Made by a program: the position numbers and the translations under genes
The notes under the pieces: generated by a model
Database searches by the model: none
What the model was told of the DNA's origin: nothing
Seen by the model: the letters and a program-made list of their open reading frames with translations, nothing else
Part shown: positions 247 to 63,822 of the stretch, in pieces
Layout: each line of letters begins with the position of its first letter
Numbering within the stretch: position 1 is the stretch's first letter
Origin: a phage
Sequence record: PV730302.1
Direction: 5' to 3' (one strand)
Length of the DNA: 64,000 nt

Positions 247-250
247 CTTA

Positions 251-3202: not shown

Positions 3203-3279
3203 TATATTTTTCCATAGGCATCATTATATTTTACTCACGTTTTAAGATAGGGTAATTATATCACTTCACATTTACAGCG

Positions 3280-7555: not shown

Positions 7556-7615
7556 TATCTGTTCCTCAAGTGAATGTAGGTACATTATACACTATTTTTA
7601 ATAAATTGGTATTGC

Positions 7616-8116
7616 TTAAATCTTATCTTTACCGATTTCAATACACTGTTCTATTGCCGCCGGTACTTTGGTCTTGAGCTTATCGATTTGTTTCTTATAA
7701 TCACGAGCTTTACCGAAGCTCTCAGTTTCGAGCATTTCGTAATAACGAGCTTCATGGATAGAAATCTGTAGATTGATATGGTTTACGCACATCGCATACA
7801 GTTTCTGCTTTTTGTACAAATCATCTTGGCGCTTCATTTCTGCCTGGTGTTTGGCTAGTACCGCTTCACGCTTGGACTCTTGTTCACGTTGGAATTCGAT
7901 TTCTCGTTGAGCATATTTTGCACAGTTATTACCACATTGATTATTAGCTCGGGTATACACAAGTCCAGAACCAGCACGGAATTTCATTTCGCCATCGAAT
8001 TGTTTCTGTTCAGCCGCGATACGAGCTTTACCAACTTCATCAGCCGAAACTGCATCACCATATTGGACCGCGCAACCTGATAGGAGCATACTCATTGCGA
8101 TAATTAACTTTTTCAT
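7616..8116 (-). CDS. putative lipoprotein (166 aa), function unknown
   Basis: Signal peptide with lipobox MLLSGC; ATG 8116 with GAGGA SD; charged coiled-coil-like body. Confidence 0.65.
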   Translation of the reverse strand: MKKLIIAMSMLLSGCAVQYGDAVSADEVGKARIAAEQKQFDGEMKFRAGSGLVYTRANNQCGNNCAKYAQREIEFQREQESKREAVLAKHQAEMKRQDDLYKKQKLYAMCVNHINLQISIHEARYYEMLETESFGKARDYKKQIDKLKTKVPAAIEQCIEIGKDKI

Positions 8117-8123
8117 AATATCC

Positions 8124-8261
8124 TCAATTAAAACAGTTATACTTAATTTGTGCTATAAGAATAATCCATCCGATGATTAGTGTCGGAATCATTGGCGGGA
8201 TTGCCACTGCCCAATAAATGGTAAAGGCAGCCATTATAAGAAATAAAACAATTATTTTCAT
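8124..8261 (-). CDS. small membrane peptide (45 aa), putative (imm.1 position)
   Basis: ATG 8261-8259 overlaps the imm stop (ATGA); translation MKIIVLFLIMAAFTIYWAVAIPPMIPTLIIGWIILIAQIKYNCFN. Confidence 0.4.
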   Translation of the reverse strand: MKIIVLFLIMAAFTIYWAVAIPPMIPTLIIGWIILIAQIKYNCFN

Positions 8262-8494
8262 TGTTTAACAATAATGATTTGTGCGTTTGATTTACGTTCA
8301 GCGACGATAGCCCAGATTAAAGCCACTACCCAACCAATCATCGTCCAGCCTAACAGGAGATTAAGGAAGAAAATTCCTACATTACTACGAGTGCCTCGCA
8401 GAAGAGCCAGAATCCATGGTAAAAAGTAACCGATGAACATAATAACCAGAGAACCGAATCCTAAAACACCAGCACTAACGATTAAAGCTTCCAT
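8258..8494 (-). CDS. imm: superinfection immunity protein Imm-like small membrane protein
   Basis: 78 aa with two predicted TM helices; position between 43 and 42 as in T4; SD GAGGAAA; early promoter upstream. Confidence 0.7.
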   Translation of the reverse strand: MEALIVSAGVLGFGSLVIMFIGYFLPWILALLRGTRSNVGIFFLNLLLGWTMIGWVVALIWAIVAERKSNAQIIIVKQ

Positions 8495-8497
8495 TGT

Positions 8498-8554
8498 AAT
8501 TTCCTCATGTAGTTGATAGGAAGGATACTACCACGTTCCTTGTGGTATGTAAAC
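8498..8554 (-). promoter_or_regulatory. early-promoter-like element upstream of imm
   Basis: Minus-strand GTTTACATACCACAAGGAACGTGGTAGTATCCTTCCTATCAACTAC; -35 GTTTAC, 17-bp spacer, -10 TAGTAT. Confidence 0.55.
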
Positions 8555-8556
8555 AC

Positions 8557-11268
8557 TTAAAAGTCGAACATGTCAAATAATGTTGCTTTTTTCTCGTAGT
8601 CGATTTTAGCAGACTCGGTAAAACCGGTCAGAGGTTTGATAAAGGTCTTTTGGAACAGTACGTTGTAGTCCATCCAACGGAGGACTTGGTCACGAATCTG
8701 AACCGGAAGTTCAATACCTGACGGCCATGCCATACAAGCTTCACCAAACGGGTTGCCTTCTTTAAGTGGCAGTACATATACCTTTTCACCATCAACGATA
8801 CGAGGCATAGTCAAATCACCTGCAGAAGCACGCATGTAAGCTAAGCAACCTTTGATGTGGTATGGACATTTAGAACCCGGGAATCCACCTTCATTATATT
8901 TCTCGATGTTGTTAGCACTGGATACTGCTGCAATGCTTACATAGTTTAGTTCGTTAAATTCCTTATTAAACTGTTTGAAATATTCTTGCAAAGAGGCCTC
9001 GCCTTCCTGAAGCATACGACGGATACATTCTTTCAGAGCTTTCTGAACTGCTTTAGGTGTACTTGATTTCTGGGTTTCGAGACCCATGATTTTCAAGTGC
9101 GGTTCGGCATAACGAGTACCTTCCATGTCCCAAACGTTCAGTGCATAACGTTTCTTGCCTGTCCAGAATCCACCAAGACCTTTAGAACCAAGTGGAGGAC
9201 CTGCGATAGCTTCTCGGTCCATGAACATCAAGTGTTGTTTGTTGTTCATGTACTCGCACATCTCACGGAAGCCTGCATCAATAGCTGGTTCCATACGTTC
9301 ACGTGCAAATTTATCTAAGAAGTCGACCCAATGGTTAGTATCACGGAATTTATCTTCGCCTACTTTATTGATGATTGCATCTGCCTTAACATAAATGGAG
9401 TCAGTATCACCATAGAGCACGAACTTCTGATTTTCAGTCTTACACACGCTATTCAGATATTCGTTAACCTTACGTTCAATCCATTGGAGGGCCATTTGAC
9501 CAAACAGTGTGATTGCAGTTGCGTTCCTGAGGTCGTAATAACGGAACCATACGTTACCAAGTGCACCATAAAGGGAGTTGATAAGCAACTTACGGTTAAT
9601 CTGAGCAGTCATACCTGCAACTTCGGTACGTTCAGCTCTGAACAACATTTCTCTTAAAGAAGGTGCTGACAGCGTTTTAATCTTGGCTTTGATTTCGTCA
9701 GAGAAGTCAAAACGATAATCGATATCCAGTGGACTATCAGCCGAGAGATTAGGATTTTCTAATGCTTCTTTAATTAACTCACCATTACGTTGAGCTGCAA
9801 GCATATAACCTTTATGTTCTTTACGTTGTAAGAACACCTTAGTGATTTCTGTAGGAATCACACCATCGCGGTCTTTATAGTACATCATGCCGTTAGGAGA
9901 GCAACTGTAGACGTCGCTAGGACGCGGAGCTGTTCCGGCAATATATTCATGTATCGGTGCGTTAGCGAATGTCCCTGCGATGGTCTCTGGGCTTATATTC
10001 ACTTGTCGAATGATACTCGGGTACAGAGATGTAAGGTCGAAACTCATTACGTATTTGTAAGCGTTAGGAATCGGTTCCTTAACGAAAGCGCCAGGATAAG
10101 GTTGGACCACGTGCGAACGAGCTTGTGGAATTACCTTGCCTTGCTCTTTAAGGCTATTAAAGATAATAGCGTCCCAAGTCTTAATTGGACTAAACACCGA
10201 CTGAATCTGCATCTTAGCATAATAACCCATGTCCAAACTCAGAAGAATGAACTGGCGTTTCATATCAATCTGCACTACACGATATACGTCGATAATGTTA
10301 TAGGAAATATATCGTTGGTGGTTCGTCTCACGTAACTTGGAGATTGGACCATCGTATTTCAACTTACCTACTTTCAATTCATATTCAGAAACATAATCCA
10401 GAGAATAAGAAGGCTGGTTGGTGAAGCTGAATTTTTTATAGAGGTCGATATAATCCAGAACAGAGATGCCGAACAAAGTAATGATTTCACGAGCACCGTA
10501 CATGTTCTCGATAACTTTAACACGAGTTTTACGATGTGGGCTTAATCGCTTAGCAGTGTTCTCACCGAACAGATTTTTCAGACGGTTATAAACGTACGGC
10601 ACGTCAAATGATTCAACGTTCCATCCAGTCAAAATCACAGGAGTTTTCTGTTGCCAGAAATTCAAGTACTCAAGCATCATTTCTTCTTCAGAATTAAATG
10701 GAAGATAAACGATTTTGTCAATGATTTCCTGTGGAACTTCGTCACCACCTTCGTCTTGGAGTTTCTCAGCGATTTTAATCGACCACTCTTCAACAGTACC
10801 ATAAGGCGAAACTAAAAGGTCGAATACATAGAATTTATCGTCAATCGAGTCGTAGTGGGTAATGGCATCGATAGGATGTTTAGCCTGAGCTGGTTCAGGG
10901 AATCCATCAGGAGATGTTACCTCGATGTCGAAGTTAGCAATACGAATCTTAGAAGAATCATATTTGATTTCTTTACGATAGGTATCAGACAAATAGGCTA
11001 ATTTATAGTCGTCCATACCCAGGGCTTCGAGGCCCATATCATCCATACGTTTCATCCATTGGGATGCATCACGCATAGAGTCGAATTCTTTCTTAACACA
11101 ACCCTTACCATAGATATCAATGTATTTTACGGCTTGCTCTGGATTAGCATGCATAAACATTGTAGGCTTGTATGGAACTTCACGACTACGTTCGTTACCA
11201 TTTTTATCGATGTAACGTTCGAGAATATTATCACCGATTTGTTCGACTGTCAAATAGAATTCTTGCAT
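8557..11268 (-). CDS. 43: DNA polymerase gp43 (family B)
   Basis: Near-colinear with recalled T4 and especially RB69 gp43; start taken at in-frame ATG 11268 (MQEFYLTVEQ, matching T4 MKEFYISIET) with AGGAAA SD, not the longer track ORF to 11328. Confidence 0.96.
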   Translation of the reverse strand: MQEFYLTVEQIGDNILERYIDKNGNERSREVPYKPTMFMHANPEQAVKYIDIYGKGCVKKEFDSMRDASQWMKRMDDMGLEALGMDDYKLAYLSDTYRKEIKYDSSKIRIANFDIEVTSPDGFPEPAQAKHPIDAITHYDSIDDKFYVFDLLVSPYGTVEEWSIKIAEKLQDEGGDEVPQEIIDKIVYLPFNSEEEMMLEYLNFWQQKTPVILTGWNVESFDVPYVYNRLKNLFGENTAKRLSPHRKTRVKVIENMYGAREIITLFGISVLDYIDLYKKFSFTNQPSYSLDYVSEYELKVGKLKYDGPISKLRETNHQRYISYNIIDVYRVVQIDMKRQFILLSLDMGYYAKMQIQSVFSPIKTWDAIIFNSLKEQGKVIPQARSHVVQPYPGAFVKEPIPNAYKYVMSFDLTSLYPSIIRQVNISPETIAGTFANAPIHEYIAGTAPRPSDVYSCSPNGMMYYKDRDGVIPTEITKVFLQRKEHKGYMLAAQRNGELIKEALENPNLSADSPLDIDYRFDFSDEIKAKIKTLSAPSLREMLFRAERTEVAGMTAQINRKLLINSLYGALGNVWFRYYDLRNATAITLFGQMALQWIERKVNEYLNSVCKTENQKFVLYGDTDSIYVKADAIINKVGEDKFRDTNHWVDFLDKFARERMEPAIDAGFREMCEYMNNKQHLMFMDREAIAGPPLGSKGLGGFWTGKKRYALNVWDMEGTRYAEPHLKIMGLETQKSSTPKAVQKALKECIRRMLQEGEASLQEYFKQFNKEFNELNYVSIAAVSSANNIEKYNEGGFPGSKCPYHIKGCLAYMRASAGDLTMPRIVDGEKVYVLPLKEGNPFGEACMAWPSGIELPVQIRDQVLRWMDYNVLFQKTFIKPLTGFTESAKIDYEKKATLFDMFDF

Positions 11269-23326: not shown

Positions 23327-23796
23327 TTAAGCGATTTCCTCAGTTGTTTTTTGAATGAATCCACCATTTGTTTCTTAGTGGCAGATTCATTATAAGTCAT
23401 TCCGTGTGAAAGCATTTCAGCAATCATTTCTTCCTTACCCAACCTGCTGAACTCTTTGGTTTTATCAGGAACGAAATTAGGATGAATATTGTTTTCAGTA
23501 TAATCAGCTTTCAGATAGACCAGCAAATTCTCTAACCATTCGAGGTAGTCAACGTTTTGACCTTTAAGACCAGAACGGTTGAACTTATGCTTCATTTGTC
23601 CTTCTGCAGCATTGCACAGGTTACATAGTAAACCACGAACCTTACCGGCTTTTGGCCCGTTTAACTCGTGGTCGTGGTCAAGGTGGTTACTTTGAACATC
23701 AGGGTTTAATTCACGTTTACAAATCAAACACTTACCACATTGTGCATCATAAAGTTTTTGTTTTTCTTCTTTGTATAATTTGCCGGTCAACAACAT
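23323..23796 (-). CDS. 49: endonuclease VII (Holliday-junction resolvase) gp49
   Basis: 157 aa, about 85-90 percent identical to recalled T4 gp49 including the zinc-binding CxxC motifs and HLDHDHELNGPKAGKVRGLLCNLCN. Confidence 0.95.
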   Translation of the reverse strand: MLLTGKLYKEEKQKLYDAQCGKCLICKRELNPDVQSNHLDHDHELNGPKAGKVRGLLCNLCNAAEGQMKHKFNRSGLKGQNVDYLEWLENLLVYLKADYTENNIHPNFVPDKTKEFSRLGKEEMIAEMLSHGMTYNESATKKQMVDSFKKQLRKSLK

Positions 23797-23801
23797 AATA
23801 A

Positions 23802-23833
23802 ACCCTTACCATTATTAGATAAGGGTATTTATT
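23802..23833 (-). promoter_or_regulatory. gene 49 translational-control hairpin (SD sequestered) with late-promoter-like AATAAATA
   Basis: Minus-strand ACCCTTA-TCTAATAATGG-TAAGGGT, perfect 7-bp stem, 3' arm containing the SD AAGGG 5 nt from the ATG; AATAAATA (7/8 of TATAAATA) just upstream. Confidence 0.5.
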
Positions 23834-23925
23834 AATATCCTAATAGTTTAGCAGTGCAACTTAGCACTAACAACAATCCGAATAAAACAACTCCTACCCA
23901 AAATACCGTAATAAGAGCCTCCATA

Positions 23926-24102
23926 TCAGACCCCATAGAATGAACGATGCAAACGTTTAAATTGACGAATCATCTTTTTAGTAGGACGGGTGTATAATCC
24001 TACACAAGTGGCCATAAACTGGTCAGTTGGACTTCCTTTGATAAGAAGTTTCCAGACCTTACCGCCATTTAATTTTTCGGTATAGACTAATACAGTTTTC
24101 AT
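23926..24102 (-). CDS. small hypothetical protein (58 aa)
   Basis: ATG 24102 overlaps the upstream stop (ATGA). Confidence 0.35.
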   Translation of the reverse strand: MKTVLVYTEKLNGGKVWKLLIKGSPTDQFMATCVGLYTRPTKKMIRQFKRLHRSFYGV

Positions 24103-24401
24103 GCGACCTCAAATTCATTATCATCGTTGGTCCAAAAACACCAGAATGAAGCTTTAGTATCTTCAAACATTTCTTTAGTGTATTCGTATACCTTACCATT
24201 GAATTCGATAGCAGTTACGCCGATGATTTCAGGGTCGCCCCATGGAGACATTTCCACCTTAAGGATTTTAACTTCAGCGCCTTCACAGAGCTCACCTGAC
24301 TCAAAACCACGATTACCATTTAATTCAGGCCAGTCAACATAATGGTCGACATCTTCTTCAGTAATACGAACAGTTTTACCTTCAAATTCAAATAAATTCA
24401 T
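24099..24401 (-). CDS. hypothetical acidic protein (100 aa)
   Basis: ORF. Confidence 0.5.
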   Translation of the reverse strand: MNLFEFEGKTVRITEEDVDHYVDWPELNGNRGFESGELCEGAEVKILKVEMSPWGDPEIIGVTAIEFNGKVYEYTKEMFEDTKASFWCFWTNDDNEFEVA

Positions 24402-24574
24402 CAGAACGCCTTATCAGCAAAGCGAAGTTGAGCTTCAAGCCAATGAATATAATCGGCTGCAGATTTAATCAAATCGGATTCTAGGTCAGGTAAAGAACCC
24501 GAATCCGACAATTCATAAAGTGAATGTTCAATCAGACGGCCTTTATGACGGCCAACTTCAATTTTGGTACTCAT
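24401..24574 (-). CDS. small hypothetical protein (57 aa)
   Basis: ATG 24574 with GGAG SD 9 nt upstream; stop overlaps the next ATG; below track size cutoff. Confidence 0.4.
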   Translation of the reverse strand: MSTKIEVGRHKGRLIEHSLYELSDSGSLPDLESDLIKSAADYIHWLEAQLRFADKAF

Positions 24575-24690
24575 ATCCAAACTCCATATCGATTAATTCA
24601 TTGTTTGAAGGTTCATTATACTCTATTTCGGAATCGTTGTAAACCGGTTCCTCTGGCTCGGTAGTTTCCCACCGAGCGACATACCATGGC

Positions 24691-24999
24691 TTAACGGTCA
24701 CACCACCAACTACTTACTTCAAAATCAGGTTCACCGTGTTCCCAGTACCAAGGGCCGACTGGATGCCAATCGCCATGTTCATCTTCTTCAAATTCTTCAG
24801 ATTCAAGCCCAACGTATTGCCATTGAACTTCATAAGCGGTGCCACCGATTACAACGGTGTTCTCGCCATACGGATGAGCTACAACAAAGTCAATACCTTC
24901 TGCTTTGGCTAACCAAACCATATATTCGTATAGTTTATATTCCAGGTCATCTTCGGTGCCATCACCTAGAAAAATGGTTTGTTCGTTTAATTCAATCAT
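24691..24999 (-). CDS. hypothetical acidic Trp-rich protein (102 aa)
   Basis: ORF. Confidence 0.45.
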   Translation of the reverse strand: MIELNEQTIFLGDGTEDDLEYKLYEYMVWLAKAEGIDFVVAHPYGENTVVIGGTAYEVQWQYVGLESEEFEEDEHGDWHPVGPWYWEHGEPDFEVSSWWCDR

Positions 25000-25184
25000 A
25001 ACTCCACCATAAATTCAAATAGCTGGTCACGTACACAGGTATCAGTCCAACCCCATTCGTTGGCTTCTTCTTTTAACCAATCCGGGAGATTTGCCAATAC
25101 GGTTTCTTTACTAGGCGCAGGAGTATTAAACTCACTTGCAAACTCTCTTGCGCAGGTTTCATAAGCTGTATCAAATTCGGTCAT
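24996..25184 (-). CDS. hypothetical protein (62 aa)
   Basis: ORF. Confidence 0.4.
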   Translation of the reverse strand: MTEFDTAYETCAREFASEFNTPAPSKETVLANLPDWLKEEANEWGWTDTCVRDQLFEFMVEL

Positions 25185-25338
25185 TTAAAGTTCCAGAATG
25201 AAGCACCAACCAGAAATAAAGGCCAACAAATCATAGACGTCAGCCACCAACAAAAATCACCGGAATCATCTAATTTAGCTAGGGTCTTAGCATAACCAAT
25301 ACCGATGATAAGATACAAAACAACCAACATTAATTCAA

Positions 25339-25602
25339 TCATTTGAAATACGCTCGCAGTTGGTCAAAGCCACCAATAGAAGTTCCGTCCGGAGCAAATA
25401 CCTGAGGCATAGTCAAACCTACCTGAGATTCACGTCCAAGAGCAGCCAGGAGTTCAGCAATCTTCTCATCATCAAACACACCTTTTTCCGGCATAACGTT
25501 AATGAATTCGTAAGGTTGTTTCTTAACGTCAAGCAGTCGTTTGGCGTTATCACAGAAAACACAACGGTGAATATTTGAATCGTAACCATAAACTTTAAAC
25601 AT
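25339..25602 (-). CDS. nrdC: thioredoxin NrdC
   Basis: 87 aa; MFKVYGYDSNIHRCVFCDNAKRLL near-identical to recalled T4 NrdC. Confidence 0.92.
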   Translation of the reverse strand: MFKVYGYDSNIHRCVFCDNAKRLLDVKKQPYEFINVMPEKGVFDDEKIAELLAALGRESQVGLTMPQVFAPDGTSIGGFDQLRAYFK

Positions 25603-25603
25603 T

Positions 25604-25840
25604 TTAAATTCCTAATATTTGTTTGAATGCTTCAGAACGGTCAAGTTCTGTTCCATATTTTTCCATATGCTCATATTTTAAATCATACACATCAGATAGT
25701 ATATTATTATACGAGCGAGTTAAAGCAGATTTCAATACTGAATAACTGTCCGGGAATTTACCATGCTCTTTATAATAAGCTACGGTGAGTTCGCGGACTG
25801 CCTTATCGGCAGCCTCTACATATTCTTTACGCTTTGCCAT
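25604..25840 (-). CDS. hypothetical protein (78 aa)
   Basis: Start at ATG 25840 overlapping the upstream gene end; weak SD. Confidence 0.35.
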
Positions 25841-26138
25841 TTTCGTCTCGCTCAAATTTGTGTTTACAATGGCGGCATTTGTAACGAAGATTACTAGTCT
25901 GCCAATGGACCAATTGAACCTGTTCTGTACCACACTCAGGACAGTTTGGTACATTCTTAGAAGCTTGTTCTCGTCGTGCGACCATAGCCATTACAGCATC
26001 CCAATTAACGGCATCACTATATTCATCACAGCCATGAATTTTACCAACCAATTCAACTTCAACATCCTCGGCTTTAATAAATTTCAATAAACCGGTATTG
26101 GTTGTTGAAGCAATATCTTCAGCTAAACGTTGTTTCAT
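25827..26138 (-). CDS. zinc-ribbon protein (103 aa)
   Basis: CPECG...C..C four-cysteine motif. Confidence 0.5.
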
Positions 26139-27145
26139 TTCAACAGCTCCAGAGCTTGTTCAAGACGGTCTAAACGATTGGTAGACTCTTCCCAAAGTTT
26201 CTTGGCAGCAGTATATTGCCCAGTCAGTTTTTTGTTAATAGCAAGGGCATCTTTATACGCTTTTTCTAAGGCAACGACTTCTGGTAACTTGGATTTAGTA
26301 ATTGGTGTAGGGGCCATGATAGGGTTGTTCAAGTCGTTAATCAAGTCTTCTAATGTAGCAGGCTCTTTATCAGTGTTCACAATTTCCTCACATTTTTCTT
26401 GGTAAATTTCAGCATCAGTTTTTGGAACAGGGCATTTGATTTCACGGACTGTTACTAAGACCTCGTATCCTTTCCAACCATAGAAATGTTTAACTTCTTG
26501 AGTCTCGTATTTCTCTACGGTATCCATCAGAGCTAAAGCTTGTTCGATAGTATTCAAGGTGTCGTAAGCAATATCTTGATACTTTACAACTTCCGCATCA
26601 TCTTTAGGTTTCCTATTAGGCGACCAAATAACAGAAATAATAGCTTTTCCTTTATAACTATTTGTTTTAATCATGCAATTAGCCATAGGGTGAATAGTAC
26701 GACAATCACCGGAAACTATAGTTTTAGAGGCCGCTTTGAGAATTAATGCAGAGTTAGCCTTGAATTCGCTAACCCAACGTTGCGGAAATAAACTACTAGG
26801 GTCCATACCTTTAATTTTGATATAACTTTTTATGGTATCACCAAACCATTTGTAGTTAACAACATGGCTGGAACCTGGATGTTTCTCTTTGCCAAACTCT
26901 GAAAGGATGTCCTTATTGACCAGTCGCGAAAGCAGTCGAGAACCTTTAAATGTTTTAATGATATCATGAATGCACAAACGGCCTGCAATCTTTTCGATTT
27001 CAGCTTTGAAACAGCGCGATAATGCATCATCAATTTGGTCGACCCATTTATTGATATTAGAAACTATTACCACATATGGGGTTAATGGAGGGGTGTTGGC
27101 AGTGATATACGTAGTAAAGGCATTAATGTATTCAGTACGAGTCAT
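26135..27145 (-). CDS. hypothetical protein (336 aa)
   Basis: ATG 27145 directly downstream of a TTTACA-18-TATAAT promoter. Confidence 0.6.
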   Translation of the reverse strand: MTRTEYINAFTTYITANTPPLTPYVVIVSNINKWVDQIDDALSRCFKAEIEKIAGRLCIHDIIKTFKGSRLLSRLVNKDILSEFGKEKHPGSSHVVNYKWFGDTIKSYIKIKGMDPSSLFPQRWVSEFKANSALILKAASKTIVSGDCRTIHPMANCMIKTNSYKGKAIISVIWSPNRKPKDDAEVVKYQDIAYDTLNTIEQALALMDTVEKYETQEVKHFYGWKGYEVLVTVREIKCPVPKTDAEIYQEKCEEIVNTDKEPATLEDLINDLNNPIMAPTPITKSKLPEVVALEKAYKDALAINKKLTGQYTAAKKLWEESTNRLDRLEQALELLK

Positions 27146-27201
27146 GATATTCTCCTCAAGTTGATAGAAAGATTATACTCCATCCATCCTTGGATGTAAA
27201 C
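27146..27201 (-). promoter_or_regulatory. early promoter (GTTTAC-18-TATAAT)
   Basis: Minus-strand GTTTACATCCAAGGATGGATGGAGTATAAT. Confidence 0.6.
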
Positions 27202-27202
27202 A

Positions 27203-28096
27203 TTATTTTAGAGCTAATACTGCCGCGCGGAGCTTGTCACGCTGGAGTTCCATGTTCTTGATGCGGATCAATACGTCTTGAATACTCTTTTTCTCATCTT
27301 CGATCTGACCATTTAAACGGTGGATTGATTCCTGGAGGTGGTCCTCATGATACTTCTCGATAGGTTTCATCGTAGGGTTAGTAACCACCAAAGAATTCTC
27401 GGGTTTAATTTTCCAATGATACGGTTCAGAATTGAATGGACTAGGCACGGCTGTGGTTTTGAATTTGTCATAGGCTGCATACTGGCCTACACTGTCACAT
27501 GATACTGAAGAGATACGACGTTCCATTTGTGGTTCCTTTTGTTGGGGTTGATAAGGGGCATAAGACAAAAGATATTCGCGAGTTAGTTTAATATTAAAAT
27601 AAACTGCATCAGCCCGCTCAAAACAATCAGCGTATTCATCGGTCGTAACCTTATATGATTCTACAGCCTTAATACGAGTCATTGCTTCTCTGAATAAGGT
27701 TTCAAATGCACCACGAAGGGCCTTATTGCCTTTTGAGGTGGGACGGAAACGAACTTGAATACCGTCAGGCAGAATATTAATGACTAGGTTACGAGCCGTA
27801 AAATTAATATTCTTGATATTGACAGGAACCGTAGAAATACGTCCTGCGGTAGCCAAGAGGTCTTTGATATTAGCTCGCAGTGTTGCACCAAATAAATGAG
27901 CAGGGCAACGGCAATAATCGTTCAAAGAACTAATATAAGTCCCTTTACGACCTACACCATAAGTATAATTACCATTACAAATATGGCCGAAGTCGGCCAG
28001 CCGATCGATAGCGATACGACGAGTCGTGTCATGGTCATAGATGGAATATTCTTTACGCGTTTTAATGTTCATATCAGAGTCCAAATAATTTTTCAT
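27203..28096 (-). CDS. hypothetical protein (297 aa)
   Basis: ORF. Confidence 0.6.
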   Translation of the reverse strand: MKNYLDSDMNIKTRKEYSIYDHDTTRRIAIDRLADFGHICNGNYTYGVGRKGTYISSLNDYCRCPAHLFGATLRANIKDLLATAGRISTVPVNIKNINFTARNLVINILPDGIQVRFRPTSKGNKALRGAFETLFREAMTRIKAVESYKVTTDEYADCFERADAVYFNIKLTREYLLSYAPYQPQQKEPQMERRISSVSCDSVGQYAAYDKFKTTAVPSPFNSEPYHWKIKPENSLVVTNPTMKPIEKYHEDHLQESIHRLNGQIEDEKKSIQDVLIRIKNMELQRDKLRAAVLALK

Positions 28097-28289
28097 AGAG
28101 TTTAGCGATAGGCCACAGAATTAGCATACATAACCAGGCAAAGCAAAATACTGGCCATACAAATGTAATGAATACTGCATCATAGCTTGATTCAATTTCA
28201 ACCGGGTTCCATGCACCGGACTTATGAACAAATAATGCAGTAATAAATCCTATCACAAGATATCCAATAATAAAACTGATAATTTCCAT
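28074..28289 (-). CDS. small membrane protein (71 aa)
   Basis: Two hydrophobic helices. Confidence 0.45.
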   Translation of the reverse strand: MEIISFIIGYLVIGFITALFVHKSGAWNPVEIESSYDAVFITFVWPVFCFAWLCMLILWPIAKLYEKLFGL

Positions 28290-28291
28290 AA

Positions 28292-29134
28292 TTAATCCTT
28301 AAGAAGATTTAGGATATCGATATATTTTTGACGTTCAGCCTTGGCTTTAGCATTCAGACCAGAGAGTCGGAAAATCTCATCATCTTGTTGTTGAATTGTA
28401 ACATTCAAGCAAGTAAGCAAATTACTAAAATATTCAATCTGGGCTTGATGCTTCTCATTGCTGCGCACTGGCACAGGTTCCGGTTTAGGAGCTTGTTCTG
28501 AATGCTCTTCAGCCAGGTCTTTAATTTTATAAAGTTTAATACGCTGACCCACTCCAGTTTCGGCATCACCAAAACTAAGAACACCGTGCTGTTCTAATTC
28601 AGACAAGGCCAATCGGAGATGGAACTTCCAGTTGTCATATTGACAACCACTGTAATGGGAAATGGTATACTCATTTTCATTTCCGGGGTGGTTAACAATA
28701 CTAAAGATAATCCAATCACCTGAGCCATTAGTCTTAAATGGCATTTGCTTATCAAGACCTTTTGCAAGGCGAGCGCCAAGAGCCAGTAGACGTCGTTGGT
28801 TGGCATGAAGGTCTTGAACAACTTCGTCAAATGACAACGCCGGGATTAAACGACCATAAAGGTCGTAGCCTTTGTTATAATTTTTAAGAATAATTTTGGC
28901 ATTAGCACGAGACAACATACCTGTTTTACGAAGAGTTTTCATGACCCGGTCTTCTAAGGTAAAAGACCTGGTCTTATCAAAGATTTTAGTGAAGTCATCT
29001 TTAACAGTACAAACATTGAACTTGTCCCACATCATATATAGAACCTTTTCAACCACTTCTTTAGAACTCGGAATACGACCAAATTTAATAACTTTTTTAA
29101 CTTCAGAACGAATTTGATTAATTGCCTGTGACAT
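28292..29134 (-). CDS. hypothetical protein (280 aa)
   Basis: ORF. Confidence 0.6.
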   Translation of the reverse strand: MSQAINQIRSEVKKVIKFGRIPSSKEVVEKVLYMMWDKFNVCTVKDDFTKIFDKTRSFTLEDRVMKTLRKTGMLSRANAKIILKNYNKGYDLYGRLIPALSFDEVVQDLHANQRRLLALGARLAKGLDKQMPFKTNGSGDWIIFSIVNHPGNENEYTISHYSGCQYDNWKFHLRLALSELEQHGVLSFGDAETGVGQRIKLYKIKDLAEEHSEQAPKPEPVPVRSNEKHQAQIEYFSNLLTCLNVTIQQQDDEIFRLSGLNAKAKAERQKYIDILNLLKD

Positions 29135-29197
29135 AATAATTTCCTCAGTAAGTAATTAAGAACCTAGAACCATTATACCATCCTTGGTATAAAGCGT
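29135..29197 (-). promoter_or_regulatory. promoter-like element with TATAAT -10 and MotA-box-like CGCTTTA 12 bp upstream (possible middle promoter)
   Basis: Minus-strand AAACGCTTTATACCAAGGATGGTATAATGG; no GTTTAC -35. Confidence 0.3.
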
Positions 29198-29722
29198 TTA
29201 TGCGAGAACCGTCTTTAAACGCTCTTCAAATTTCTGAAGCAGAGCTTGGCGTTCAGCTCGTTGTGATTTGTACTGCTCGATACGACCTGAAGTGAGGGCG
29301 TACTGTTCGTTTACTGATTCCCGCATAAATTCAGGAATCTCTTTACAAGCTTTGATTTCGTCAAACTTATCAATAACAGCTTGTTGTTCAGCAATCAGAT
29401 TATCGAAATAAGCGATATCAGATTTAACGTTTGCCAGGTCAGATTCGGTAGGCATTAAACGTTTGTTACGTTCAGCTTGATAAGCTTGATTGTTTTCACG
29501 ACTCCAGTGAAGAGTACGTTTTTTGTTAGTGTTTTTATAGAGCTCTACAATACCAACTGAATCGATGACTGCAATCCAGTTCCAACGGCTTTTGTAAATC
29601 TCTCCTCCAGATACGGTAATCTCATTACCACAAGCAACGTCGTTAAAGAACTTGCTTTGTTTTTCAGATTTGAAATTACCGTTGTTGAAATTAATCAGTG
29701 AAAAAATATCTTTAGCGTTCAT
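29198..29722 (-). CDS. hypothetical protein (174 aa)
   Basis: ATG 29722 downstream of an early promoter; SD GGAGG. Confidence 0.55.
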   Translation of the reverse strand: MNAKDIFSLINFNNGNFKSEKQSKFFNDVACGNEITVSGGEIYKSRWNWIAVIDSVGIVELYKNTNKKRTLHWSRENNQAYQAERNKRLMPTESDLANVKSDIAYFDNLIAEQQAVIDKFDEIKACKEIPEFMRESVNEQYALTSGRIEQYKSQRAERQALLQKFEERLKTVLA

Positions 29723-57372: not shown

Positions 57373-57380
57373 TATAAATA
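57373..57380 (+). promoter_or_regulatory. late promoter TATAAATA for gene 53
   Basis: Exact TATAAATA on the plus strand 28 nt upstream of the gene 53 ATG; divergent from the gene 4 promoter. Confidence 0.65.
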
Positions 57381-57387
57381 TTAATAT

Positions 57388-57395
57388 TATTTATA
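57388..57395 (-). promoter_or_regulatory. late promoter TATAAATA for gene 4
   Basis: Exact TATAAATA on the minus strand 27 nt upstream of the gene 4 ATG. Confidence 0.65.
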
Positions 57396-57407: not shown

Positions 57408-58010
57408 ATGCTCTTCTCATTTTTCGATCCCATCGATTACGAATCAAAAACAGTCAAGCCGGATTCGGGCTCATTAACAAATGCCGATGTACTGAGCGTG
57501 CCGATGACTGATATATTTAGAAATTATAAAGAATATTTTGATAAAGTGGCTAAAAACTATACACTAAAGACTTATTATATCAACGGGGCCCCTCGTCCAG
57601 AAGAATTGGCCAATCAACTTTACGGTAACGTTCAGTTATACTGGGTTTTATTGATGTGCAATAACGTATATGACCCATATTACGGCTGGATTACAGGCCA
57701 AGAAGTCGCATATCAAGCAGCAATCCAAAGATATTCTACTGCAGGTGGCAATCAAGTTCTTTATCATGTTAATGAAAAGGGTGAGAAATTCTGGAATCTT
57801 GTTAATACTCCAGAAAACCCATATACTTGGTATGATAAAGGTGATACAGAAAAACGTTATCCTCAATATGAGGGCCCTTTGGCTGCAGTAGATATTTACG
57901 AGGATGCTATTCGTAAAAATGAATATAAGCGCGAAATAAAGATTGTAGACCCTAATGATATTGAGTCCTTTATTTCTGCCCTTATTCGCGAAATGGAGAA
58001 AGCCCTCTAA
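57408..58010 (+). CDS. 53: baseplate wedge protein gp53
   Basis: 200 aa; SD GGAGG; T4 gene order 4|53-5 with divergent late promoters. Confidence 0.85.
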   Translation: MLFSFFDPIDYESKTVKPDSGSLTNADVLSVPMTDIFRNYKEYFDKVAKNYTLKTYYINGAPRPEELANQLYGNVQLYWVLLMCNNVYDPYYGWITGQEVAYQAAIQRYSTAGGNQVLYHVNEKGEKFWNLVNTPENPYTWYDKGDTEKRYPQYEGPLAAVDIYEDAIRKNEYKREIKIVDPNDIESFISALIREMEKAL

Positions 58011-59797
58011 TGATTAACATGTCTGATAATGTAAGTTGGTTCGTCGGTGTAGTTGAAGACCGAATGGACCCGCTCAAACAAGGCCGAGTACGCGTGCGCG
58101 TATGGGGTATGCATCCCTATGAAAAGGTACAAGGCCCTGTAAAAGGTCTTCGTACAGAAGATTTACCATGGATGTCGGTATTAATGCCTACATCTTCGGC
58201 CTCTGTTTCAGGTATACAAACCGCTATGACAGGTATGGTCCCAGGTACACAAGTTTATGGCCACTTTCTTGATAAGTGGAAATTAAACGGACTTGTCCTT
58301 GGTACATACGGTTCCGCTTCAAGACAAAAGGCTAACCCTAATGAAGGTTTTAGCGACCCAACAGGCCAATACCCACTTTATTTAGGTAATGATGCCGCGG
58401 CTTTAAACCGAGGTGGTGAAGTTGGATATGATGCCACTTCTAACGTAATCCAGGATTCTAATCTAGATTTGGGTCTTAATCCTGATGGTTTAGATTTAAG
58501 TCAAGTCAAACCTGACGATAATCCTAATTTCACAATAGAAAACATGCTTCACCGTGATGAAGGGCTTAGACTGAAGGTATATTGGGACACCGAAGGATAC
58601 CCTACTATAGGTATAGGTCACCTTATTACGCCACAACCTATTAGAGATATGAACCAAATAAACAAAATATTGTCTAAACAAATAGGTCGAGAAGTTAAAG
58701 GTAACCCTGGTGCAATATCAATGGATGAGGCTTCTAAATTATTCCAAGAAGACCTTAAAAAAGTCCAAAGCGATATAGGTCGACATAGTGTTGTGGGTCC
58801 GGTTTACAATAAAGAAAACCGTTCAAGACAAATGGCTCTTGAAAACATGGCTTTCCAAATGGGATTGGGTGGACTGGCTAAATTTAGAACCATGCTCGCT
58901 GCAATGTTAGCCGGAGATTATAAGAAAGCATTTGATGCCGCTCGTGATTCTGTGTGGTTTAACCAAACTAAAGGTCGTGCATCAAGGGTATCAATGATTA
59001 TCCTTACAGGTAACATGGAATCATACGGTATTATGGCCCCTAAAGAAAGGTCATTTAAAGGGCGTTCGTATAGAATGATTCAAACTTTTGCCGCACCTGC
59101 AAATTCAGACCCAGCCGACCCATGGACCCCAGAAGATACAAGGATTCTGTTTAAAGAACCCGAATCAAGTTATAAGGGCGAATATCCTTATGTGCAGACA
59201 ATGCAAACTGAAGGTGGGCATATCCAAGAATTCGATAACACCCCAGGGCAAGAACGTTATCGTTTAATCCATCCTACAGGTAGTTATGAAGAAGTTGCTC
59301 CTGATGGACGTAAAACTTCTAAGACGGTAGCCGACGGATATTATATGACCCAAGGCGATTCTAATACTTATGTCGGCGGTAATAATAAAGTCAACATAGG
59401 CGGTGATGAAACCTATTATAATATGGCAAACGTGCGCCGTCAAACTGACGGGTCCGAAAGCATCCATATTCGTGGTAATGAAACCAAAACAGTAGAAGGT
59501 GATGGAACTCTGCTTGTTAAAGGAAATGTTAAAATAGTTATTATGGGTACTGCTGATATAACTGTTGAACAAGAAGCATATATTACGGTTGAAAAAGATA
59601 CAACAGTTAATGTCAACCAGAATGCAGATATAAGCGTTAAACAAAAGGCCACAATCAATGCTCAAAATATGGATGTAAATGTCGAACAAGATTTAAATTT
59701 TGCAGCGACGAACATTAATTTAAACGCATCAAATACTGTGCATATGGATGGCGGTTCATTAGCTAAAGTATCTGGTGGCAACGTACAGGTCGGTTAA
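58010..59797 (+). CDS. 5: baseplate hub/cell-puncturing protein gp5 with lysozyme domain
   Basis: 595 aa; N-terminal NVSWFVGVVEDRMDPLKQGRVRVRVWG, central T4-lysozyme-like domain, C-terminal V-x-G-x repeat beta-helix. Confidence 0.93.
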   Translation: MINMSDNVSWFVGVVEDRMDPLKQGRVRVRVWGMHPYEKVQGPVKGLRTEDLPWMSVLMPTSSASVSGIQTAMTGMVPGTQVYGHFLDKWKLNGLVLGTYGSASRQKANPNEGFSDPTGQYPLYLGNDAAALNRGGEVGYDATSNVIQDSNLDLGLNPDGLDLSQVKPDDNPNFTIENMLHRDEGLRLKVYWDTEGYPTIGIGHLITPQPIRDMNQINKILSKQIGREVKGNPGAISMDEASKLFQEDLKKVQSDIGRHSVVGPVYNKENRSRQMALENMAFQMGLGGLAKFRTMLAAMLAGDYKKAFDAARDSVWFNQTKGRASRVSMIILTGNMESYGIMAPKERSFKGRSYRMIQTFAAPANSDPADPWTPEDTRILFKEPESSYKGEYPYVQTMQTEGGHIQEFDNTPGQERYRLIHPTGSYEEVAPDGRKTSKTVADGYYMTQGDSNTYVGGNNKVNIGGDETYYNMANVRRQTDGSESIHIRGNETKTVEGDGTLLVKGNVKIVIMGTADITVEQEAYITVEKDTTVNVNQNADISVKQKATINAQNMDVNVEQDLNFAATNINLNASNTVHMDGGSLAKVSGGNVQVG

Positions 59798-59798
59798 T

Positions 59799-61862
59799 AT
59801 GAATTACTACGATAAAGTTGATGAAGTGGTAGGGACTGTAACAAGTCCCTGTGATGACGCAGTAGGACCTGGTGAATATCGCCGGGTTAAATGGGAATTA
59901 TATAACCCAACAGGTGCTTTTATTCAACCTGGGAATGGCGTTGAATGGGATACCGAGATTATTCCACTAGCTACACATTTATACACACAAAATCCATTTG
60001 GTAATAAGTCCGAAACTTTTCCTGCACCTCCCCCACCGGAAGATGGAACAAGTCAAGGTATCTGGTGTGCTAAACTCGGAATATTCTTTATTACGCAATT
60101 GGATTTAGAAAATTATGTAGAATCGATTGGTGCAACTCTTTTGCCCGGTAATGATTGGTACGGCGCTGATTTATCAAAATCTGTATTGTATAAAACATCT
60201 ATTGAATATGATATGTATCGCATCGAAAACTGTGGCGGTGTATGGACGTCACAGGGCCCCAGAATGGACCCCAGGACGATGATTGCAGTTACGGCTGATT
60301 ATCATATGTATGTCAACTTTAACGGCCTTGGTGACTCCCGCAGGGCTTATTTGAAGTACTATGAGACAAAACCTTGTACTTATGTTGGACTGGTATTAAA
60401 TCTAGATGTCGATATGAGTATCCCAGGAACTCCGATTCCGGGACCGGTATCCATCGGGTCTTTACCGCCAGAAATAACCGGGCGAGCCAGGACAATAAGC
60501 TGTGTTCCTTTTACAGCGGAATTCCCTTACAACGGATTGACTAATGCGATTATGGCTTCATGGAATACATCTAGGAATTCATTCAAATTATATTGGGATA
60601 TGCTCCCTGGATGGCCATCATCTGGTGGAACCGATTGGGAAAAATTCTTCGATTCCGGTTATAGTAAGCTATCGGTCGCAATGGAAGAGCTAGGCAACTC
60701 AGCTGTTGCTATGTGTCAATATGTTCAGCAAATGGCTTTTCTTGCATTTAAAGATGCCATATCACAGGTCTTGAATATTGTTGGCGGTGGGTGGGACTTA
60801 CTTAAAAGCTTTTTACCCTCGATTACTATTATGGGCATGACTATTGACCTGGAAGACCTCTGCACTTCAGGTGATGGTGTACAGAAATTAAAAGAAGCAT
60901 GGAAAAACTTTAATTTAGAAGAAACCATCCAATCGATTTATTCTGCCATTGGGTCGGCATACGATTATTCGGTTGAACGCGTCAAGATGTATTCGCGTGA
61001 CCTTATTGATGCAATTACAGACTTGTATGACTGGGCCTGGTCTCAATTGCTTATGGCTGGTGTTGCATTATCAAAACTGTGTGTAGACCTCGCTCAAATA
61101 TGGAGTATGCCTCCTATAGTTCCGAACCCAGTTTGGAGCGTTATTACTGCGGTCAAGGAAATGATGAAGCAAGTTAAACCACTGGACATGATAATGAGCG
61201 GTAACTTTCCAGGATTCACAGCATCAGATGTTTATCAAATGGTTATGGAAAAGGTAGACCAGAAAATAGACGAAGCTTATGCAATGATTGAGGCTCTTAA
61301 AACCCAGGCACTCAATCTGTGGAATGAGATTAAGCTCAAAAAGCAAGAAGTACAAAAACAAGCTATTGAATTTAAACAATATCTTTCAGGAATGTACGAA
61401 AAAGTTACAGACGAGCTAACTGCTCAGAAGGAAGCCGCATTAGCACAAGCTGAAGCTGCACTTGAACTTTTAAAGAATAAATATAATCAGATTAAGAACT
61501 CTATTACCGAAAGTCAAACCTCCGTTTCTGATGTATTAGATATGGCTTTAGAAGAATTCAAAAAACTTCCTATTGTGGCTCAAATGGAAGAACTTCTCGG
61601 TATGCTCGGAGCTACTGTAGATGATATCATGGTTATATACGAGAACTCAGTAACTAAAGCAAAATCTTTATATCACGAATTTACTGATGGTTCCAGGTCA
61701 ATGAAAGACTTGTGCAAATCAATGTATAACCAAATATCAACATTATCCTTAAGTAAGGTGGTACAATGGATTAATAAGATGCTGGGAATATTCGGTTTAA
61801 CGATTACATTTCCATCCCTTTCCATTTGCATACCTTGTTTAGAATCTCCTACTAGGAATTAA
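59799..61862 (+). CDS. hypothetical large protein (687 aa) between genes 5 and 6
   Basis: ATG 59799 two nt after the gene 5 stop; Pro-rich N-terminal region, long coiled-coil segment, hydrophobic C-terminus; track start 59775 is GTG. Confidence 0.6.
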   Translation: MNYYDKVDEVVGTVTSPCDDAVGPGEYRRVKWELYNPTGAFIQPGNGVEWDTEIIPLATHLYTQNPFGNKSETFPAPPPPEDGTSQGIWCAKLGIFFITQLDLENYVESIGATLLPGNDWYGADLSKSVLYKTSIEYDMYRIENCGGVWTSQGPRMDPRTMIAVTADYHMYVNFNGLGDSRRAYLKYYETKPCTYVGLVLNLDVDMSIPGTPIPGPVSIGSLPPEITGRARTISCVPFTAEFPYNGLTNAIMASWNTSRNSFKLYWDMLPGWPSSGGTDWEKFFDSGYSKLSVAMEELGNSAVAMCQYVQQMAFLAFKDAISQVLNIVGGGWDLLKSFLPSITIMGMTIDLEDLCTSGDGVQKLKEAWKNFNLEETIQSIYSAIGSAYDYSVERVKMYSRDLIDAITDLYDWAWSQLLMAGVALSKLCVDLAQIWSMPPIVPNPVWSVITAVKEMMKQVKPLDMIMSGNFPGFTASDVYQMVMEKVDQKIDEAYAMIEALKTQALNLWNEIKLKKQEVQKQAIEFKQYLSGMYEKVTDELTAQKEAALAQAEAALELLKNKYNQIKNSITESQTSVSDVLDMALEEFKKLPIVAQMEELLGMLGATVDDIMVIYENSVTKAKSLYHEFTDGSRSMKDLCKSMYNQISTLSLSKVVQWINKMLGIFGLTITFPSLSICIPCLESPTRN

Positions 61863-61863
61863 A

Positions 61864-63822
61864 ATGGCTACTCCTACGAATTACCAATTAACAAGAACCG
61901 TTAACGCTATCCCAAAAGTATTTGTGGGAGCTACGTTTGAAGAAATTAAAAAGAATATTATAGACTGGCTTTCTAGCCAGGACGAATTTAAGGATTATGA
62001 TTTCGTTGGTTCTCGAATGAATATCCTTATTGATATGCTTGCTTATAATACCCTTTATATGCAGCAATTTGCTAACACTGCTTTATACGAATCTTTTATA
62101 GGAACTGCAAACCTTCGTTCTTCGGTTGTCCAGGCTGCACAAGATAATGGATATCTTCCTAGTTCTAAATCCGCGGCAAAAACTACTGTAATGCTTACGT
62201 GTACTCAAGCCCTTAATGAAAAGAATATTCGTATTCCGAGAGGTACTAAATTCCTGGCTTATGCTCGTGATACTTCAGCCGATCCATATGCCTTTGTGAC
62301 CACTGATAACGTTATTGCAGTGCGTGACGTTAATAACCGGTATTGGCCTATTGTTTCTCTGGCTCAAGGACGTATTATTCGTACCGAACTTAAATACGAC
62401 CCTAAAACTCCTATTCTTATTCGTGACCCGGATATTGATAGACAAGAAGTTAAACTTTATGTTGATGGGGCAGAATGGATTAACTGGACCGATAAATCAA
62501 TGGTTCACGCTGGTAGCACCTCGACAATTTACTATATGCGCGAAACCGTAGATGGTAATACCGAATTCTTCTTTGGTGAAGGTGAAGCCGAGAAATCTGT
62601 TGCAGGTGGAGTATTAGAAGCTAATTATATCGGCGGTCTAAAACCTGTTAAAGATTCTACCATTGTTATAGAATACCTTCGTACAGACGGTGAAGTTGCA
62701 AACGGTGCTGTCGACTTCAGTTATGCCGACTCCTTGGCTTATATCACTGTAGAAAAAATTACTGAAAACTATAACGACGACCCTGATTATGTGGGTGCCG
62801 ATGGTGGTGGTGACCCTGAAGATATTGAACGTATTCGCGAATTGGCTGTAGTTAAGCGCGAAGCCCAGATGCGTGCTGTAACAGGAACCGACTACGATAC
62901 ATTCGTGTCCGAGCGTTTTGGTTCTATTGTACAAGCAGTACAAACCTTTACGGACCCAAATAAACCTGGTTATGCTTTTGTCACCATTAAACCCAAATCA
63001 GGGCTATATTTGACGGCAGTCCAACGTGAAGATATCCAAGGCTATCTAAAAGAATTTAACTTAGCCCCTATTACCGCTTCTGTTATTTCTCCTGATTATT
63101 TGTTCTTAAAGCATAAAATTAAGGTATCATATGCCTTGAATAAATTACAGGAATCTGAACAGTGGCTATCGGCTCAAATTCTTTCTCAGATAGACCGCTA
63201 TTATATTAACGAAGTAGAAATTTTTAACCACGGATTCGCTAAGTCAAAAATGCTGACTTATATTGATAATGCTGACCATAGTATTTTAGGCTCCTCTGCT
63301 ACCATAACAATGGTTCGTGAGGTATTGAACTTTTTCAAAACCCCTGAATCAGGTATTAAATACTATAATCAATACACTAACCGTTCTGTGGTTTCTAGTG
63401 AATTTGAGTTTGTCCCTACTATCGTTTCTGAAGACAGTCCGGCGTATAATGTCAGAATTGCCGCTACAGATAAAGACGGCCGTGGTGATGGTAAAATGGT
63501 TATTGGGCCTTTCCGTCCAGGAGATGTAATTGAAAACCAATACATTAAACCATATACAGGAAATGACTTTGACAAAATGCCTGCTCCTGCAGACCAATCC
63601 GTTTATTACGTTATAGGTGAAATTGATTATTATTCAGATTTCATTTTCTGGGACATTGCGGCTATCGGTTTAACGTCCGATCGTTTTGAAGTTCAATCTA
63701 TAGAACTTTATGCGGGACCTGACCAAGACAACATCTTTACAAAAGACGGTTCGTTAATCGTATTTGAAGATGACCTCCGCCCTCAATACACGACCATTGA
63801 ATTAGAACCTATTACAATATAA
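61864..63822 (+). CDS. 6: baseplate wedge protein gp6
   Basis: 652 aa; colinear with recalled T4 gp6 from the N-terminus (MATPTNYQLTRTVNAIP) to the C-terminus (RPQYTTIELEPI). Confidence 0.93.
   Translation: MATPTNYQLTRTVNAIPKVFVGATFEEIKKNIIDWLSSQDEFKDYDFVGSRMNILIDMLAYNTLYMQQFANTALYESFIGTANLRSSVVQAAQDNGYLPSSKSAAKTTVMLTCTQALNEKNIRIPRGTKFLAYARDTSADPYAFVTTDNVIAVRDVNNRYWPIVSLAQGRIIRTELKYDPKTPILIRDPDIDRQEVKLYVDGAEWINWTDKSMVHAGSTSTIYYMRETVDGNTEFFFGEGEAEKSVAGGVLEANYIGGLKPVKDSTIVIEYLRTDGEVANGAVDFSYADSLAYITVEKITENYNDDPDYVGADGGGDPEDIERIRELAVVKREAQMRAVTGTDYDTFVSERFGSIVQAVQTFTDPNKPGYAFVTIKPKSGLYLTAVQREDIQGYLKEFNLAPITASVISPDYLFLKHKIKVSYALNKLQESEQWLSAQILSQIDRYYINEVEIFNHGFAKSKMLTYIDNADHSILGSSATITMVREVLNFFKTPESGIKYYNQYTNRSVVSSEFEFVPTIVSEDSPAYNVRIAATDKDGRGDGKMVIGPFRPGDVIENQYIKPYTGNDFDKMPAPADQSVYYVIGEIDYYSDFIFWDIAAIGLTSDRFEVQSIELYAGPDQDNIFTKDGSLIVFEDDLRPQYTTIELEPITI

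Follow-up and report, generated by a model that had tools for sequence, protein, structure and literature searches.

When a contractile tail meets the cell envelope, its spike tip protein makes the first contact. In T4 this protein is the PAAR protein gp5.4 (PDB 4KU0; PAAR is Pfam PF05488), which has reportedly been shown of late to matter for fitness and for the infection of hosts with deep-rough lipopolysaccharide. The subject here is gene X, our name for a gene of 687 codons that lies between the baseplate genes 5 and 6 in a stretch of 64,000 nucleotides of phage DNA from record PV730302.1 (the window, by which we mean the whole stretch). Its product is a further member of a known, poorly characterised protein family that has already been proposed in the literature as a spike tip, and we consider it probable that X is the spike tip protein of the virion, which caps the gp5 β-helix through a three-helix core, presents a larger apex to the envelope and enters the periplasm on contraction. 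We base this reading on the family membership, the synteny, the loss of gp5.4 and the coupling within an exchanged cassette that are presented here, and on the tip density of phage RB43 and a docking model, both from the literature.

A described relative is ORF205w of Escherichia phage RB43, which Mattenberger, Leiman, Belin et al. (bioRxiv 2025, revised 2026; PMC12407873) proposed to be a large non-PAAR spike tip protein. The phages RB43, RB16 and Lw1 have no gene 5.4, and orf205w fills the 5.1-5.4 locus; its product of about 690 residues is of mixed α/β structure in residues 1-220 and helical in the remainder. A cryo-electron microscopy (cryo-EM) map of the RB43 baseplate at 17.7 Å showed the spike tip to hold a larger protein, and this density is fitted by an AlphaFold model, of low confidence, of the orf205w product (PMC12407873). 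Another member, gp203 of Klebsiella phage Helios, a Slopekvirus, was modelled with AlphaFold3 as a single copy on the trimer of gp202, which is gp5 (Viruses 2026, PMC13611949). In that model a three-helix core, 287-327, 398-440 and 631-670 (F287-I327, E398-W440 and K631-I670), abuts the last gp5 strand, and a loop is found at the distal tip. The protein is known as a model only, and according to its authors the function of gp203 is not established experimentally.

Gene X and the ORF205w family

The gene is given here in one line, and its parts and neighbours are listed further below.

59799..61862, + strand: gene X, putative non-PAAR spike tip protein of 687 amino acids, 76.8 kDa, isoelectric point 4.7; orthologue of RB43 ORF205w and Helios gp203

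The window belongs to a Dhakavirus. The DNA of X is 99.2-99.5% identical to that of the Dhakavirus phages Bp7, WG01, SP18 and relatives, and in all close Dhakavirus relatives the gene is annotated 'hypothetical protein'. Residues 1-682 match phrog_5296, a family of unknown function, with E=0 over positions 1-684 of the 685 in the profile, and tblastn finds homologues in 216 phage records, nearly all of which (214) cover at least 80% of the query; X is therefore far beyond a chance open reading frame. The original prediction, that the gene may be conserved and little characterised and not newly inserted, is well supported by these records, where the label is almost always 'hypothetical'. The match in RB43 is RB43ORF205w, located between genes 5 and 6 of that phage as X is here, and BLASTP aligns the two proteins colinearly; over 695 aligned positions they are 43% identical (563 bits). 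Because the alignment runs from end to end, X belongs to the described ORF205w family. The two proteins also share the α/β N-terminus followed by an all-helical remainder, the absence of gene 5.4 from the genome and a gp5 tip that in RB43 reads ...GGTVQVG. They differ in that RB43 is a Pseudotevenvirus and not a Dhakavirus, that 57% of the positions are different, that the hairpin arms described below are poorly conserved, and that cryo-EM evidence exists for RB43 only.

Identity to X is 72% in the phages SG1 and PD112, 67% in KM16 and 58-59% in Proteus phages, and there are homologues also in phages of Cronobacter, Citrobacter and Enterobacter, in RB16, RB43 and Lw1, and in over 100 KP15-like phages of Klebsiella (42-46%). 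The homologues in Slopekvirus, the genus of Helios, are 43% identical to X. A word-indexed search at metagenome scale returned 62 proteins, nearly all of 664-703 amino acids, and added only close relatives, and when 1.84 billion cluster representatives were scanned with a hidden Markov model (HMM), about eight full-length clusters came up besides some fragments and coiled-coil noise. No family was above threshold in a Pfam/NCBIfam scan (for Pfam, none at E<=0.1), a sequence search of the PDB gave nothing but a coiled-coil adhesin at E=0.46, and a search of BFVD gave family members only. Judged from these searches the family is compact, restricted to T4-like phages and without detectable remote homologues.

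Among the homologues the automatic labels are inconsistent, with 'SbcC-like subunit of palindrome specific endonuclease', 'tail length tape measure protein' and 'baseplate hub structural protein' in the records PP889466, PP889503, PQ657829/30, PP889458 and PP337149. That X would be a tape-measure-like or SbcC-like protein has such labels in its favour, as well as weak matches to PHROGs 305 and 8462 (E = 5e-4 and 5e-3). The two matches are confined to the helical region and were rejected as coiled-coil noise, the first two labels look like coiled-coil artefacts, and a gp29 homologue is encoded elsewhere in the genome (WG01 ORF195), so that X is not the sole tail ruler. We give this identity hardly any credence.

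One homologue is shortened. In Escherichia phage phT4A, a Slopekvirus labelled 'partial genome' (NC_055712, 3851-5473), the open reading frame for X has 540 amino acids and begins 4 nt past the gp5 stop, and the annotated coding sequence has 485. It matches X of the window from residue 193 on only, so that most of the N-terminal α/β domain is deleted or misassembled.

The gp5 tip and the exchanged cassette

The gene order is 53-5-5.1-segC-5.3-5.4-6 in T4 and 53-5-X-6 in the window. That X might be one of the T4 5.x genes had been left open by the original prediction, and this has to be given up. No homologue of gp5.1, gp5.3 or gp5.4 was found with tblastn in the window (all E>0.4), or, at E<=1, in the complete genome of its closest relative, WG01, which is 99.4% identical to the window in X; as positive controls, the T4 and VR25 loci were recovered at 1e-59 to 1e-63 with gp5.4 and at 1e-76 or better with gp5.1. 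The family profile of X gave an hhalign probability of 0.4% against gp5.1 and 0.03% against gp5.4, and no known T4 non-structural gene was found to match X over its full length. On the evidence of gene content, X replaces gp5.1, gp5.3 and gp5.4 instead of adding to them. The lack of a PAAR pattern, on the other hand, had been read correctly from the letters. There is no such signal in Pfam at E<=0.1, in BLASTP against T4 gp5.4 (E=0.46) or in hhalign (0.03%), and PAAR likeness is absent at the sequence, profile and fold levels, X not being a small conical β-structure.

T4 gp5.4 and X are alike in their genomic slot directly 5' of gene 6 and in being proposed caps for the blunt end of the gp5 β-helix. 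In every genome examined they are mutually exclusive, and they differ in that gp5.4 has 97 residues and X 687, that the two have no similarity in sequence, profile or fold, and that they pair with different gp5 tip sequences, which share 15-22% identity over the last windows of the gp5 comparison.

The synteny was followed in 18 X-related loci, 16 of which were parsed by script, and for the remaining two, of the SG1 type, the annotation and a gp5 alignment were used. X begins -1 to +6 nt from the gp5 stop in all 16 parsed loci, and the gp5 encoded 5' of it has at least 580 amino acids where the contig is complete and ends in ...[ST]G.L.K[IV][ST]G[GA].VQVG. In general this ending is GG.VQVG, with GA.VQVG in two Proteus-phage loci and GGTVSVG in the most divergent contig; the two SG1-type loci have the same layout and gp5 tip. 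X is located directly 3' of gene 5 also in WG01, Toast, SG1, RB43 and 12 IMG/VR loci, and a gp5.4 match within ±4 kb of X was found in none of the 18. The most divergent X comes from a metagenomic contig (P0062, ERZ23488527 scaffold_330, 237-4970) and has 764 amino acids at 31% identity, with an upstream gene that ends in ...FTGGTVSVG. Unlike the window, T4 and WG01, this contig has a gp25-like (GPW_gp25) gene between X and gp6.

The part of gp5 that goes together with X is the following.

59531..59797, + strand: distal end of the gp5 β-helix, approximately residues 508-595, ending ...GGSLAKVSGGNVQVG; breakpoint at alignment column ~517 in SG1 and VR25

At its C-terminus the gp5 of the window exceeds the T4 tip by 14 residues in the alignment, and its identity to T4 falls to 15-38% in the last windows of the comparison. 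In two natural recombinants this segment has been exchanged together with what follows it. Salmonella phage SG1 (NC_054936, 3227-7037) belongs to the genus of T4 itself, Tequatrovirus, and is T4-like at 100% in gp53, at 97-100% in gp5 as far as alignment column ~517, and at 92-100% throughout gp6, whereas its last ~88 gp5 residues are 15-38% T4-like and ~90% like those of the window, and in place of 5.1-5.4 it carries an X that is 72% identical to that of the window. The phage vB_EcoM_VR25 (KP007361, 2739-5294), a Gaprivervirus, is the mirror image of SG1. Most of its gp5 resembles the window, at 72-100% for most sliding windows with one dip to 65%, and the start of gp6 does so at 100%, whereas the gp5 tip is of the T4 type and is followed by gp5.1 and gp5.4. 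The breakpoints of the two cassettes coincide.

From these alignments, the last ~88 residues of gp5 and the tip gene or genes are exchanged and inherited as one cassette. That they were swapped jointly in both SG1 and VR25 argues for a physical coupling between X and the gp5 tip, as a joint exchange would be expected of a tip protein that has to fit its docking platform, which we propose to be the X-type gp5 tip. The T4 gp5 fragment on which gp5.4 was crystallised, 484-575, encloses the exchanged segment (PMC12407873).

Predicted fold and transcription of X

The composition of X is as first described from the sequence, with a Pro-rich N-terminus (11% proline in residues 1-100, including PAPPPP), a segment rich in Gln, Glu and Lys (together 34% of residues 475-600) and a hydrophobic C-terminus, where the peak of hydrophobicity over 19 residues is at 663-681, GIFGLTITFPSLSICIPCL, with a Kyte-Doolittle value of 1.74. 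An AlphaFold2 monomer of X, built on an alignment of 29 sequences, is a confident model, with a mean predicted local distance difference test (pLDDT) of 87.2 and a predicted template modelling score (pTM) of 0.77. It has strands and short helices over residues 1 to ~264 and long helices at 298-328, 398-435, 475-529, 538-575 and 631-665. We divide the protein as follows.

59799..60398, + strand: X residues 1-200, α/β domain with the invariant WYGAD motif (120-124)
60399..60689, + strand: X residues 201-297, Pro-rich β/loop region; pLDDT 75-90 in the full-length model only
60690..61220, + strand: X residues 298-474, helical core, which includes two of the three core helices, at 298-328 and 398-435 (AlphaFold2, conservation)
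61221..61523, + strand: X residues 475-575, long Gln/Glu/Lys-rich helical hairpin, 475-529 and 538-575 (AlphaFold2, conservation, composition)
61524..61793, + strand: X residues 576-665, helical, with the third core helix at 631-665 (AlphaFold2; conservation of 631-665, 0.76)
61794..61862, + strand: X residues 666-687 and the stop codon, hydrophobic tail with strand 673-682 and the conserved C677 and P679 (AlphaFold2, composition, alignment)

When the N-terminal part is predicted alone, residues ~20-200 keep a pLDDT of 88-97, while residues 200-299, predicted without the C-terminal part, fall below 55 as compared with 75-90 in the full-length model. Residues 1-200 thus come out as an autonomous domain, for which no structural neighbour was found in the PDB, and the ~100 residues that follow, 201-297, probably pack against the helical core. 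Among the long helices 631-665 has the highest conservation (0.76), and the three helices matching the core published for Helios rank among the better conserved parts of X, as is the segment PP.VPNP...GNFPGFTA within 298-474, which is highly conserved. The Helios core (287-327, 398-440 and 631-670) coincides with the helices 298-328, 398-435 and 631-665 of X, and we infer from the homologous position in the two models that they are the same helices. The arms of the hairpin are the most variable parts of X, with a conservation of 0.48 for 475-520 and 0.39 for 546-575, while the turn retains a QYL.GM motif in which Q527, Y528 and M532 are kept at 90% or more. The hairpin, 475-575, is our candidate for a distal, membrane-facing apex.

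Long helices and a coiled-coil-like hairpin could also belong to a trimeric tip, in which gp5 is prolonged along its threefold axis by a coiled-coil needle of three X copies in place of a single pseudo-symmetric cap. The tip of phage P1 bears three copies of the helical protein UpfB, as cited in PMC13611949, and the symmetry imposed on the RB43 map does not fix the number of copies (PMC12407873). The AlphaFold2 monomer is however compact, and is confidently predicted in isolation (pTM 0.77), and the published AlphaFold3 model has one copy, whose three-helix core matches the threefold gp5 end (PMC13611949). Three copies would moreover add 230 kDa at the tip, whereas a single ORF205w model fits the density (PMC12407873). 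We therefore regard a trimer as unlikely, and a single copy of X as the preferred arrangement of the spike tip.

The hydrophobic C-terminus is modelled as a β strand, 673-682. It could instead be taken as the anchor of a non-structural protein of the inner membrane, with a role in for instance superinfection exclusion or lysis control, since the value of 1.74 for residues 663-681 lies just over the usual threshold for a membrane helix. The stretch contains three prolines, though, and its predicted strand is packed into the fold; X has no N-terminus resembling a signal peptide, is acidic (isoelectric point 4.7) and otherwise looks soluble, and its gene lies within the late baseplate operon and co-varies with the gp5 tip. 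The hydrophobicity first noted is real, but the reading of this Pro-containing tail as a membrane anchor was rejected in favour of a packed strand, and a membrane protein of this kind seems to us very improbable.

C18 and C193 are invariant in the family alignment and C235 and C677 are kept at 90% or more, whereas none of the three histidines of X falls in a conserved column. In the model the four cysteines sit in or beside strands that may be near one another, a hint of a metal site or of disulfides.

The listing of open reading frames gives a single frame on the + strand, 59775..61862, of 695 amino acids when counted from a GTG. The GTG-initiated extension, 59775-59798, lies 8 codons 5' of the ATG of X and overlaps the end of gene 5. 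We prefer the ATG at 59799, because all 28 of the aligned homologues begin at the equivalent MNY/MDY. There is then one spacer base between the stop codon of gene 5 (59795-59797) and X, and one between the stop codon of X (61860-61862) and the ATG of gene 6 (61864), so that the extent, start and stop first given for a 687-residue frame between genes 5 and 6 are retained. The strand opposite X has short open reading frames only, of at most 67 amino acids. That the flanking genes encode baseplate proteins, as was first proposed, is confirmed by Pfam with E values of 1e-37 to 1e-73, gp53 included.

57373..57380, + strand: T4-type late promoter consensus TATAAATA, 28 nt 5' of the gene 53 ATG
57408..58010, + strand: gene 53, baseplate wedge subunit (Pfam PF11246, E = 9e-73)
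58010..59797, + strand: gene 5, baseplate hub, tail lysozyme and spike, 595 amino acids (Pfam Gp5_OB 3e-60, Phage_lysozyme 4e-12, Gp5_trimer_C, Gp5_C; phrog_430)
61864..63822, + strand: gene 6, baseplate wedge subunit (five gp6 Pfam domains, E = 1e-37 to 5e-47)

The assignment of the late promoter relies on the established consensus for T4 late promoters. There are four matches to TATAAATA in the window, and from 57373 to its end no other on the + strand. The stop of gene 53 overlaps the ATG of gene 5 by one base, and no spacer in 53-5-X-6 exceeds one base. With the sole + strand late promoter 5' of gene 53 and spacers of this length, X would be a late gene co-transcribed with the baseplate genes, and 53-5-X-6 reads as a single late transcription unit. 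At 57373-57395 two TATAAATA sites stand back to back, one on the + strand toward gene 53 and one on the - strand toward gene 4, and by its sequence this is a divergent late promoter region that separates the head-completion genes from the baseplate genes.

Elsewhere in the genome of the close relative WG01 (NC_031928) there are three tandem genes for Alt-like ADP-ribosyltransferases and two adjacent gp24-like head vertex genes, at 23345-29457 and 7577-10140.

Proposed role at the spike tip

We picture the spike tip as follows. X, a virion protein expressed late, would cover the blunt C-terminal end of the trimeric gp5 β-helix and fill the place of the 97-residue PAAR protein gp5.4 of T4, perhaps together with that of gp5.1. 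One copy would dock on the end of gp5 through a pseudo-threefold bundle of the helices ~298-328, ~398-435 and ~631-665, and the N-terminal α/β domain and the hairpin 475-575 with its QYL.GM turn would form a bulkier conical apex. When the sheath contracts this apex would be the first part to touch the outer membrane, with the turn of the hairpin or the N-terminal domain making the contact, and could have some role in envelope specificity. By analogy with P2 gpV, for which this has been shown, X would enter the periplasm with the spike and then leave the mouth of the tube. As for gp5.4, it probably affects the efficiency of infection or its dependence on the envelope, and not the assembly of the particle. 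The link to the gp5 tip that was suggested at the outset agrees with what the literature proposes for the family (PMC12407873, PMC13611949).

Other spikes offer partial parallels. In P2 gpV and phi92 gp138 the apex attacks the membrane and enters the periplasm on contraction, as we propose for X, according to what is cited of them in PMC12407873. Their apex is fused to the spike and holds an Fe ion in an HxH motif, whereas X is encoded by a separate gene and has three histidines and no such conserved motif. The UpfB/UpfC tip of P1, as cited in PMC13611949, is a helical tripod on a PAAR protein; like X it is mostly α-helical, is added at the very end of a gp5-like spike and has a distal loop. 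In P1 the PAAR protein is retained and a further helical protein is present in three copies, whereas X has no PAAR and is probably one large chain. UpfB is likened to X by its description in that paper.

Several points weigh against our reading. For this phage the evidence for a location at the tip is indirect, from the cassette exchange and from the published density of RB43, and the orientation, stoichiometry and interface of X are taken from the published model of a homologue that is 43% identical. The RB43 map is of low resolution with C6 symmetry imposed, co-expression of ORF205w with a gp5 β-helix fragment failed, and the assignment to the tip is called 'possible' by the authors themselves (PMC12407873). 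Mere adjacency could account for part of the co-inheritance of X with the gp5 tip, and the tract that replaces 5.1-5.4 may end inside gene 5 through sequence similarity and not through function. The proteomics table of Morganella phage MP1 has no entries between gp141 and gp147, which is uninformative either way. A usable table of virion proteins for KP15/KP27 or for a Slopekvirus was not found in the literature; a proteomics paper from 2026 on a Klebsiella phage was set aside, since it concerns a Jiaodavirus, outside the X family.

Some of these points would suit a spike-associated assembly factor or chaperone, which folds, trimerises or guards the end of the X-type gp5 β-helix and is absent from the mature virion. 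X is co-transcribed with gene 5 and exchanged along with the gp5 tip, it is not detected in the MP1 table, and the co-expression with the gp5 β fragment failed (PMC12407873). RB43 virions do however have extra mass at the spike tip and no gp5.4 as an alternative source of it (PMC12407873). A highly conserved and well-folded protein of 77 kDa is also large for a helper dedicated to a segment of 88 residues, and T4 gp5 needs no such factor. The odds are, in our view, clearly against a chaperone, and neither it nor the trimer, the membrane anchor or the tape-measure or SbcC-like protein is favoured over a spike tip protein with one copy of X.

A bolder idea, which we offer as a long shot, is that X, beyond any passive sharpening of the spike, may be a helical cargo of 77 kDa that is delivered to the periplasm, where the hairpin and the hydrophobic helices rearrange to engage or open the host membrane, or to engage a host factor of the periplasm or inner membrane, and so set the specificity for envelope and host. 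The tip cassette would then be a mobile host-range module among the genera of T4-like phages.

The reciprocal exchange in SG1 and VR25 and the confident model of X are useful additions, and they leave the overall picture unchanged. X merits the annotation 'putative spike tip protein', and not 'hypothetical', 'tape measure' or 'SbcC-like'. SG1 and VR25 show that the last ~88 residues of gp5 and the tip gene or genes are an exchangeable module, and they are ready-made isogenic-like pairs for probing what a large tip does. A whole set of T4-like genera on Escherichia, Klebsiella, Enterobacter, Cronobacter, Citrobacter and Proteus would use an unrelated tip protein that is seven times larger than that of T4, and many of these phages are candidates for phage therapy.

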